From an uncultured Gemmatimonadales bacterium (GTDB lineage Bacteria > Gemmatimonadota > Gemmatimonadetes > Gemmatimonadales > GWC2-71-9), in NCBI GenBank assembly GCA_963717315.1, contig CAVQWA010000053.1, forward strand, positions 18,217 through 82,216: a stretch of 64,000 bases of DNA, in the 5' to 3' direction. The notes beneath the pieces are model-generated. The model was not told where the DNA came from and searched no databases. It saw nothing but the letters and a program-made list of their open reading frames with translations. Shown piece by piece: positions 33,607 through 34,718 of the stretch (the first letter of the stretch is position 1; the number at the start of each line of letters is the position of its first letter). Both the position numbers and the translations under genes were made by a program.

Positions 33607-34718
33607 AGGATCACCATCGCGTCGCCGTAGGAGTAGAAGCGGTACCGCTCCCGCACCGCGTGCGCATAGGCATCGAGCGTGCGTCCCCGGCCGAGGAAGG
33701 CGGCCACGAGGAGGAGCAGGGTGGAGCGCGGCAGGTGGAAGTTGGTCACCAGCCGGTCCACCACCCGGAAGCGGTACCCCGGCGCGATGAGCAGCCGGGT
33801 CTCGCCCGGACCGGCGCGCAGGGTGCCGGCTTCCGCCGCCGCACTCTCGAGCGCCCGCACCACGGTTGTCCCCACCGCCCAGACCTTCCCGCCGCGCGCC
33901 CGCGCGGCCGCCACCTGGTCCCCGAGCCCCGCCGGAACCTCGTACCGCTCGGGATGCATCGGGTGGCGGCTCCAGTCATCCTCCTCCACCGGCTTGAAGG
34001 TGCCGGGTCCCACCTCGAGGTCGAGGCGCCCGACGTCCACGCCGCGCGCGCGGATCTCCCGCAGCAGCTCCGGCGTGAAGTGGAGTCCCGCGGTCGGCGC
34101 CGCCACGCTCCCCTCCCGCTCCGCGAAGACGGTCTGGTAGCGGTCCTCGTCCTCGTCGGTGGGCGGGCGGTCGATGTACGGCGGGAGCGGCAGCCGCCCC
34201 GCCACCCGCATCGCGTCGTCCGCACTCCCGCCGACGAACCGCACCCGCCGCTCGCCTTCCTCGAGCACCGCCACCGTCTCCACCTCGATCCCGCCGCCGA
34301 GCGCAATGCGCTTGCCGGGGCGGAGTGCGCTCCCCGGCTTCCCGATCGCGAGCCAGCTTCCGTCCGCTTCCGGGTGGATCAGCAGCACCTCGGCCGGCGC
34401 GCCCGAGGGGCGCGTGCCGAGGAGTCGCGCATGCCGCACCCGCGTCGTGTTGAGGACCAGGAGGTCGCCGGGCGGGAGGAGGGACGGGAGGTCGGAGAAC
34501 ATGAGGTCGCAAAAAGGGGGAGAGGGGAGAGGGGAGGGGGGAGTGGGCCGCCCCGCACCTCTCCCCTCTCCCTTCTCCCCGATCGCGGAGCCGGCCTGTT
34601 CCCGGTGGACCGCCAGCAGCCGGCTCTCCCCCCGCTCCCGCGGGGGATGCTGGGCGATCAGCTCGGGCGGGAGGTGGTAGTCGTAGTCCGCGGTGCGGCG
34701 CGGTCCGTCAGCCGGCAA
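33603..34718 (-). CDS. queA: S-adenosylmethionine:tRNA ribosyltransferase-isomerase, carrying an in-frame repeat-element insertion
   Basis: 371 aa with TTG start. Motifs: [38 protein letters not shown]...[58 protein letters not shown]. Residues [22 protein letters not shown] are encoded by the hairpin repeat at 34516-34580. Confidence 0.88.
34516..34580. repeat. GGGGAGA/TCTCCCC heptamer hairpin element, copy a (intragenic, within queA)
   Basis: G-arm 34516-34547 and C-arm 34556-34580. A 14-bp perfect core pairs GGGAGAGGGGAGAG (34518-34531) with CTCTCCCCTCTCCC (34559-34572). Confidence 0.85.

Follow-up and report, generated by a model that had tools for sequence, protein, structure and literature searches.

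How does a repeat hairpin of a kind that normally lies outside genes come to sit within the reading frame of a conserved enzyme, and what has kept it there? The question is raised by queA, the gene for tRNA preQ1(34) S-adenosylmethionine ribosyltransferase-isomerase, in a stretch of 64,000 nucleotides (contig CAVQWA010000053.1, positions 18,217 to 82,216, assembly GCA_963717315.1) from an uncultured Gemmatimonadales bacterium; this whole stretch is referred to below as the window. Our answer, which we consider probable, is that the insert is a repeat hairpin, in essence selfish or neutral, which QueA tolerates because it lies in a permissive loop. It would be translated as a disordered segment, its reading frame being kept by selection on QueA and its repeat character and arm complementarity by processes acting at the level of the DNA. 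Loci and proteins of relatives are cited below by our L and P numbers.

The host gene is QueA by curated equivalog criteria. Its product scores 410.8 bits against the NF001140 profile (equivalog cutoff 324), 326.5 bits against TIGR00113 (cutoff 267.45) and 387 bits against PF02547 (E = 9e-116), and it keeps the full set of invariant QueA residues. The open reading frame passes, without a single stop codon, straight through a hairpin of 64 nt (34517–34580) that has ∼80% G+C and a 20-bp stem with one mismatch. The two arms are heptamer arrays of the (GGGGAGA)3 and (TCTCCCC)3 type, with G-tracts of GGGG, GGG, GGGG and GG in the G-rich arm and a further GGGG in the loop. Since one arm is made up entirely of purines and the other entirely of pyrimidines, no stop codon is possible within the window arms in any of the six frames. 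Folded in the mRNA sense over 106 nt, the hairpin reaches −58.9 kcal/mol (z = −2.9), which was matched by one of 200 dinucleotide shuffles. The stem is followed by a U5 run which is specific to the window genome, the orthologs having CTTCC, CTTTC or GGTTTC; because the run occurs in the window genome alone, a terminator role for the queA hairpin is unsupported by conservation. The terminator scan did not flag the hairpin either, and an intrinsic terminator at queA was rejected on these two grounds. The slippery-looking C CCU UUU 3′ of the stem was rejected as a site of frameshifting, on the ground that it has the structure upstream of it and not downstream. Searching the window against Rfam gave no family at the gathering score for the hairpin; sub-threshold matches to animal microRNA precursors were set aside as reflecting only a generic GC-rich hairpin.

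Comparison with solved QueA structures and with the nearest orthologs shows the segment to be an insertion. In an alignment with QueA from T. thermophilus (1wdi), residues 11–41 of the window protein correspond to chain residues 6–36 and residues 75–371 to chain residues 46–345, leaving ∼24 extra residues in the window protein. The protein search placed the gene in the Gemmatimonadales, where a sister lineage (P0010/L006, ∼69–74% identity) has an empty site. A first-pass annotation, made from the sequence letters, had read queA as continuing in frame through a complete repeat copy and had proposed that an alignment of orthologs be searched for an empty site. The peptide and the flanking motifs are as it described, all in the same frame; its count of 47 residues between the RLL and PGDLL motifs also holds, against 22 in P0010, the nearest ortholog with an empty site.

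The closest clade has seven members (the window, L001–L005 and L087), and each of them carries a hairpin insert at the same position. The inserts range from 75 to 102 nt, in lengths that are all divisible by three; alignment of their 3′ arms needs no gaps and stays in register with the downstream codons. Outside the insert, the ratio of nonsynonymous to synonymous substitution rates (dN/dS) is 0.14–0.28, at synonymous divergences (dS) of 0.24–0.61, which points to long purifying selection on queA with the insert in place. The clade-wide distribution and the dS values of up to 0.6 thus indicate that the insertion is old, not recent. The same site is filled in independent assemblies from NCBI, ENA and JGI, and three independent samples of one lineage (L087–L089) have identical unit numbers. 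Additional QueA relatives were sought by motif scans of genome and metagenome contigs; among the matches listed, most came from distant phyla, and those of use were L007–L011, L016, L090 and L091.

We also modelled where the added residues would lie. The AlphaFold2 model of QueA, based on an alignment of 114 sequences, has a mean predicted local distance difference test score (pLDDT) of 86 and a predicted template modelling score of 0.84, and its best Foldseek matches are the solved QueA structures 1wdi, 1vky and 1yy3 (E = 1e-30 to 1e-32). Residues 41–60 are predicted to be coil (pLDDT 53–56). As they fall between strands 33–37 and 69–73, the insert would lengthen the turn of a β-hairpin. The model therefore supports a predicted surface loop at the tip of a β-hairpin in the N-terminal part of the enzyme, in agreement with the surface loop that the first-pass annotation had suggested should be looked for by structure prediction.

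Across the Gemmatimonadales, this turn is a recurrent insertion hot spot. In 114 full-length close homologs from this order, SRLL and GDLLVLN are separated by 24–78 residues (mode 29), and in 59 of the 114 the loop exceeds the mode by at least seven residues. The possibility, raised by the first-pass annotation, that all orthologs might have an equally long, non-repetitive segment here is not borne out, as the sister lineage and about half of the 114 homologs are without the insert. In a neighbour-joining tree made with the loop excluded, sequences with a filled site are scattered among those with an empty one, which implies several gains or losses. In more distant cases, hairpins of other composition occupy the same turn, as in L170, which has an octamer hairpin (ACGGAAGG/CCTTCCGT), and in L171, which has a hairpin with a longer unit (z = −8.8). 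The idea that every long insert in this loop is a hairpin was rejected, since those in the QueA orthologs of L091 (gene at 336–1550) and L007 (gene at 10001–11161), with ∼50–60 extra residues, fold no better than shuffles; these two may be decayed hairpins or may be of another origin. Tandem GGCAGAC/GGACAGAC-like units are still visible in the 5′ half of the L091 insert. TGT (tRNA-guanine transglycosylase), encoded next to QueA, has a hot spot of its own: in two other Gemmatimonadota genomes, in-frame repeat hairpins encoding 32 amino acids in L091 (2954–3056) and 25 amino acids in L016 (12114–12209) share a single loop, bounded by RC.A.H and Q.LWPIVQGG.

Hairpin folding is kept by all seven clade inserts (−49 to −107 kcal/mol), although the repeat unit changes from genome to genome. 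In the window the unit is GGGGAGA in the 5′ arm and TCTCCCC in the 3′ arm; L087–L089 have GGGGAGC and GCTCCCC, and L001 and L002 have GGTGAGC and GCTCACC, the arms being complementary in each of these cases. L003 combines GGGGAAC with GCTCCCC, giving one mismatch per unit, and L004 and L005 combine GGGGAAC with TCTCCCC, giving two. A change, where there is one, thus runs through all the units of an arm, and three of the five types show it mirrored in the opposite arm. In the RNAalifold consensus of 23 pairs, both sides change from G–C to U–A at 4 of the 23 in L001 and L002, once per heptamer. Such arm-wide and opposite-arm changes, at 24–60% synonymous-site change, amount to concerted evolution, the simplest mechanism for which would be slippage within the arrays together with template switching or conversion between the arms.

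The reading frame has left its own mark on the inserts. The 21-nt cycle of the GGTGAGC unit contains an in-frame TGA, and that codon is TCA in both L001 (5420–5432) and L002 (3774–3786). This avoidance of TGA, and insert lengths that are all multiples of three, indicate selection on the frame. The encoded peptides are unrelated across genomes; they are alike in composition alone, and so give no pointer to selection on the peptide itself. As far as these comparisons go, the constraint on the insert is at the nucleotide level, where the repeat and hairpin character of the DNA persists and the amino acids do not.

The queA hairpin belongs to a dispersed family. Allowing up to three mismatches, GGGGAGAGGGGAGAGG has 34 matches in the window, where shuffled sequence would give 3.6 ± 2.1. 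Counting raw heptamers locus by locus was uninformative against the coding background. The family comprises six window loci, namely the queA copy, which is the only one inside a gene, and five further sites made up of four compact hairpins and one split pair, all built from the GGGGAGA unit and its complement. The arms have a period of 7, with a self-match of 0.86–1.0. The gene context of the copies was taken from a gene map based on G+C content at third codon positions and from Pfam assignments; three of the five further copies begin at a stop codon or no more than 2 nt from one, and the intergenic copies are without T-runs. The element thus consists of two heptamer tandem arrays in inverted orientation; as a rule it is non-coding, and it usually adjoins a stop codon. 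The first-pass annotation was therefore right to see in queA a copy of a structured, non-coding type of repeat, the other copies being non-coding, but its nature has to be corrected: these are inverted heptamer arrays, not a fixed-sequence repetitive extragenic palindromic (REP) element or MITE (miniature inverted-repeat transposable element). The coordinates of the copies and of the features in and around queA are collected in the table.

Table. Features of the queA locus and copies of the heptamer-armed hairpin family in the window (positions in the 64,000-nt stretch)
Feature	Positions	Strand	Remarks
queA (tRNA preQ1(34) S-adenosylmethionine ribosyltransferase-isomerase)	33603–34718	minus	371 aa, TTG start
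G-rich 5′ arm (mRNA)	34558–34580	minus	GGGGAGA AGGGAGA GGGGAGA GG; translated Gly/Glu/Lys/Arg
Hairpin loop with inner imperfect pairs	34540–34557	minus	18 nt, mRNA UGCGGGGCGGCCCACUCC
C-rich 3′ arm (mRNA)	34517–34539	minus	CCCCTCCCCTCTCCCCTCTCCCC; translated Pro/Ser/Leu
U5 run directly 3′ of hairpin	34511–34515	minus	end of Pro CCU, conserved Phe UUU and first base of UGC
Segment missing from nearest empty-site ortholog	34518–34592	minus	75 nt (25 codons), residues 43–67; DNA/protein alignment with L006/P0010
tgt	32455–33606	minus	downstream of queA, 4-nt overlap; without insert in the window
ruvB	34708–35736	minus	upstream of queA; stop overlaps queA start
Family copy	38852–38901		begins 2 nt past stop of GT9 glycosyltransferase gene (38901–39932, minus)
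Family copy	39944–40008		between divergent GT9 and response-regulator/PglZ genes
Family copy	54398–54457		exactly fills gap between convergent HerA-like helicase and TyrRS genes
Family copy	59837–59902		exactly fills gap between convergent HNH-domain and DUF4390 genes; TGA stop inside 5′ arm
Split copy	arms 46589–46630 and 47062–47094	minus	brackets 118-aa four-helix-bundle gene
Four-helix-bundle / 23S-rRNA-IVS-protein gene	46631–46987	minus	118 aa; PF05635, TIGR02436

The two gaps filled between convergent genes are 60–63 nt long, and the copies in them occupy a bidirectional terminator-like position. Hairpins with period-7 arms, loops of ∼50–60 nt and genome-specific units (for example GAAGCGT, GGAATGC, GAGCGAT and GTGATGA) are widespread in the other Gemmatimonadota loci compared (L018, at 3704–3773 and 11056–11177; L007, L011, L016, L020 and L022), and they also occur in one contig from the Pyrinomonadaceae (Acidobacteriota).

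The split copy encloses a gene. In the minimum free energy fold its GGGGAGA and TCTCCCC arms pair with each other into a giant hairpin whose loop contains the PF05635 gene. The gene is bracketed likewise at the orthologous locus L181, where the unit is GGGGAGC, and in another genome (L172–L180), where a different unit of ∼21 nt is used. A hidden Markov model made from 120 four-helix-bundle homologs and run over the loci compared matched only in the window and at the L172–L180 locus. We take the four-helix-bundle protein to be a relative of Avd, the accessory protein of diversity-generating retroelements.

From these observations we propose that, in the ancestor from which a Gemmatimonadales subclade descends, a single hairpin was fixed in the turn of an N-terminal β-hairpin of QueA. 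It would be transcribed and translated as a disordered Gly/Glu/Arg and Pro/Ser/Leu loop, one that probably contributes nothing to the enzyme. It would be tolerated because the turn accepts added length, because homopurine and homopyrimidine arms are free of stops in all frames of both strands, and because purifying selection on QueA holds the total length to a multiple of three and purges stops. Units may spread, or be replaced, within an arm by replication slippage, and the complementarity of the arms may be kept through template switching within the hairpin, through gene conversion, or through selection on the structure. Whilst the intergenic copies are probably factor-independent terminators or stabilisers of 3′ ends, the queA copy would be a by-product of the hairpin family, not a regulator.

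Several observations sit uneasily with a tolerated, neutral hairpin that turns over locally. Both translation of the insert and activity of the enzyme are deduced from conservation. The window copies have the unit in common but not the loop sequence, their loops varying from 6 to 24 nt, and such copies are a poor fit to simple copy-and-paste of one element; no target-site duplication was visible when filled and empty sites were compared, apart from the arms themselves no terminal inverted repeats were seen, and no transposase was found among the 17 genes scanned with Pfam in the ∼38–64 kb part of the window. In addition, four orthologous loci that have GGGGAGA in the window (the queA insert; 38852–38901, at the GT9 stop; 39944–40008, the GT9/PglZ spacer; and the four-helix-bundle arms, 46589–47094) have GGGGAGC or GGGGAAC in relatives (L003, L001, L087 and L181), a parallel difference which local slippage alone could not produce. 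This parallel change, and the bracketing of the PF05635 gene in the manner of ORF-bearing rRNA intervening sequences and of REP-flanked RAYT genes, would be accounted for if the heptamer-armed hairpins were an actively maintained, genome-specific family, with the unit homogenised across dispersed loci and the PF05635 protein as its cognate factor. We regard this reading as unlikely; were it true, a single kind of element would have been inserted both into the surface loops of proteins, as here, and into the loops of rRNA, as in the classical intervening sequences. Lastly, the hairpin has been kept over a dS of ∼0.6 with compensatory changes, and selection on RNA structure could have done this instead.

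In a role of that sort within the ruvB–queA–tgt transcript, the hairpin could attenuate in a translation-dependent way, be processed by RNase III or stabilise the mRNA, and so set the expression of queA, tgt and the genes downstream. The fold is strong, hairpin potential is kept in the seven orthologs despite the turnover of units and with compensation on both sides, a U5 run lies 3′ of the stem in the window, and intergenic family members occupy terminator-like positions. We nevertheless think an RNA-level role unlikely. The sister lineage and about half of the close QueA proteins have no insert at all, and L091 and L007 have long inserts without hairpin character in a gene that persists; the arms of L003–L005 carry one or two mismatches per heptamer; TGT hosts a similar insert at an unrelated position; and the U-run is not conserved, the terminator scan was silent on the hairpin and Rfam offered no matching family. 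It is more improbable still that the Gly/Arg-rich and Pro-rich loop has been recruited by the protein, for instance for contact with tRNA or with a partner protein. The loop is indeed kept throughout the closest clade, and AlphaFold2 places it on a surface β-hairpin, but its amino acids are not conserved, unlike sequences (among them GERGTGNRELDAGAAAGPAPRSPLPAPR) stand at the same site, its composition is dictated by the DNA unit, its pLDDT is low and loop-free orthologs are common. The first-pass annotation had left it open whether the element was domesticated or merely tolerated as a loop; the lack of amino-acid conservation among orthologs leaves toleration standing and tells against domestication. 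Its description of queA as an essential-pathway gene was too strong, as E. coli queA mutants are viable.

The unit length of 7, not being a multiple of three, would allow a contingency locus: if a unit were gained or lost, the frame would shift, turning queA, and tgt through polarity, off or on. Its position close to the N-terminus is one at which phase-variable simple sequence repeats (SSRs) tend to cluster (PMC4692102). We give this reading very little weight, since the arms have just three or four units, every assembly examined is in frame, and the three independent samples L087–L089 agree in unit number. QueA homologs of 284 amino acids (P0008, P0009 and P0013) were considered as frameshifted, phase-off alleles and rejected: the DNA of the three contigs is in frame throughout from the TTG start, and the short proteins are therefore artefacts of gene calling. 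Indeed, JGI gene calls in close relatives put the QueA start at a GTG 3′ of the hairpin (L087, 2986–3274), which gives spurious 284-aa proteins. The practical point is that a TTG start combined with a repeat leads gene callers to cut QueA to 284 amino acids. Finally, the source is a metagenome-assembled genome and a single contig, and repeats break assemblies (many homologs of the four-helix-bundle gene are on very short contigs), so that the insert might be suspected of being a repeat that mis-assembly had collapsed into queA, or queA of being dead. With the same site filled in independent NCBI, ENA and JGI assemblies, an intact frame, low dN/dS and a full-length QueA profile match above the equivalog cutoff, we find an artefact or pseudogene scarcely credible. 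The tolerated hairpin thus stays our preferred explanation. The dN/dS values and the retained queA–tgt synteny in relatives give indirect support to epoxyqueuosine formation by the enzyme.

In the synteny comparison queA lies in a run of ∼20 co-directional genes, a putative operon, and its TTG start lies inside the end of ruvB (TTGCCGGCTGA, 34708–34718), the overlap with the ruvB stop being 11 nt. Every relative examined has, between ruvA and ruvB, a conserved ORF of 57–58 amino acids (∼35733–35920 in the window; 3942–4118 in L001) without a Pfam match. In L001 a different repeat hairpin, at 4148–4235, lies between this ORF and ruvB.

The queA locus offers a natural series in which repeat DNA becomes protein sequence: across genomes, one loop of a conserved enzyme is empty, or holds a perfect hairpin, a half-decayed hairpin or an ordinary disordered insert. 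It also illustrates that homopurine and homopyrimidine repeat units are inherently compatible with open reading frames, and it extends in-gene palindromes, known from Rickettsia, to a free-living, high-GC soil phylum and to a different type of element. Questions that become testable here are how the arms stay complementary while the unit changes, why one unit dominates in each genome, and whether four-helix-bundle ‘IVS proteins’ are tied to the hairpins.

Amongst known systems, the closest match in behaviour is to the Rickettsia palindromic elements (RPEs; Ogata et al. 2000, 2002), which, as summarised in PMC10969869, are dispersed palindromes found both between genes and in frame within unrelated housekeeping genes. 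The queA hairpin family likewise has intergenic copies and an in-frame intragenic one; the latter adds a peptide at a position compatible with the fold, keeps the frame of its host and is free of stops. The RPEs, as described there, are ∼100–150 bp long and AT-rich, with family-specific conserved sequences and a conserved peptide, whereas the queA element has 64 nt, ∼80% G+C and tandem 7-nt units. Its relatives in the window share just the unit, and the unit differs between close relatives; having no conserved element sequence or peptide, it is not a member of the RPE families, and a relationship to them in sequence would not be expected.

Other elements resemble it in part. Like REPs and the BIMEs and REPINs built from them, the family consists of short intergenic palindromes whose sequence is genome-specific at conserved positions, and the bracketed PF05635 gene recalls RAYT genes flanked by inverted REPs. 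In contrast to REPs, there is no GTAG-type head, the arms being pure G/A or C/T heptamer tandem repeats; no RAYT gene was found among the window genes scanned, and the bracketed gene is not a Y1 transposase. A MITE was rejected, given that filled and empty sites reveal no target-site duplication and no insertion sequence was found in the part of the window scanned. The 23S rRNA intervening sequences (IVSs) are similar in that the 46589–47094 element, like L172 and L181, has inverted termini that form a stem around a PF05635 ORF, and in that insertion is into surface-exposed variable loops of a macromolecule, an essential one in the case of the IVSs. The host sites here are intergenic DNA and protein-coding loops instead of rRNA helices, and Rfam found no rRNA in the window; excision by RNase III as in the IVSs is inapplicable to the queA segment, because the segment is translated.

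In anatomy, the closest match is to the inverted pairs of heptameric G-rich SSRs of Xanthomonas. Cyanobacterial short tandemly repeated repetitive (STRR) heptamers are further repeats of the heptameric SSR kind. Units of GGGAATC in Xanthomonas and GGGGAYT in Nostoc have been described (Rehm et al. 2015, PMC4692102), with 70–75 convergent inverted pairs per Xanthomonas genome, mostly intergenic, ∼28 nt after an ORF and variable between close relatives; only 7–11% of the heptamer repeats overlap ORFs. Our family has the same G-rich 7-nt units, at least two and typically three or four in tandem, the same convergent stem-loop pairs near the end of an upstream ORF, and the same variation in length and sequence between close relatives at the same loci. 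It differs in phylum and in unit, and PMC4692102 does not describe a conserved in-frame hairpin in an enzyme or a recurrent hot spot in a protein. The queA hairpin is thus a variation on known kinds, the RPEs and the Xanthomonas heptamer inverted repeats, and not a new type of system; its interest is heightened by the recurring hot spots, by a turnover that can be seen to be concerted and compensatory, and by the connection with four-helix-bundle genes.

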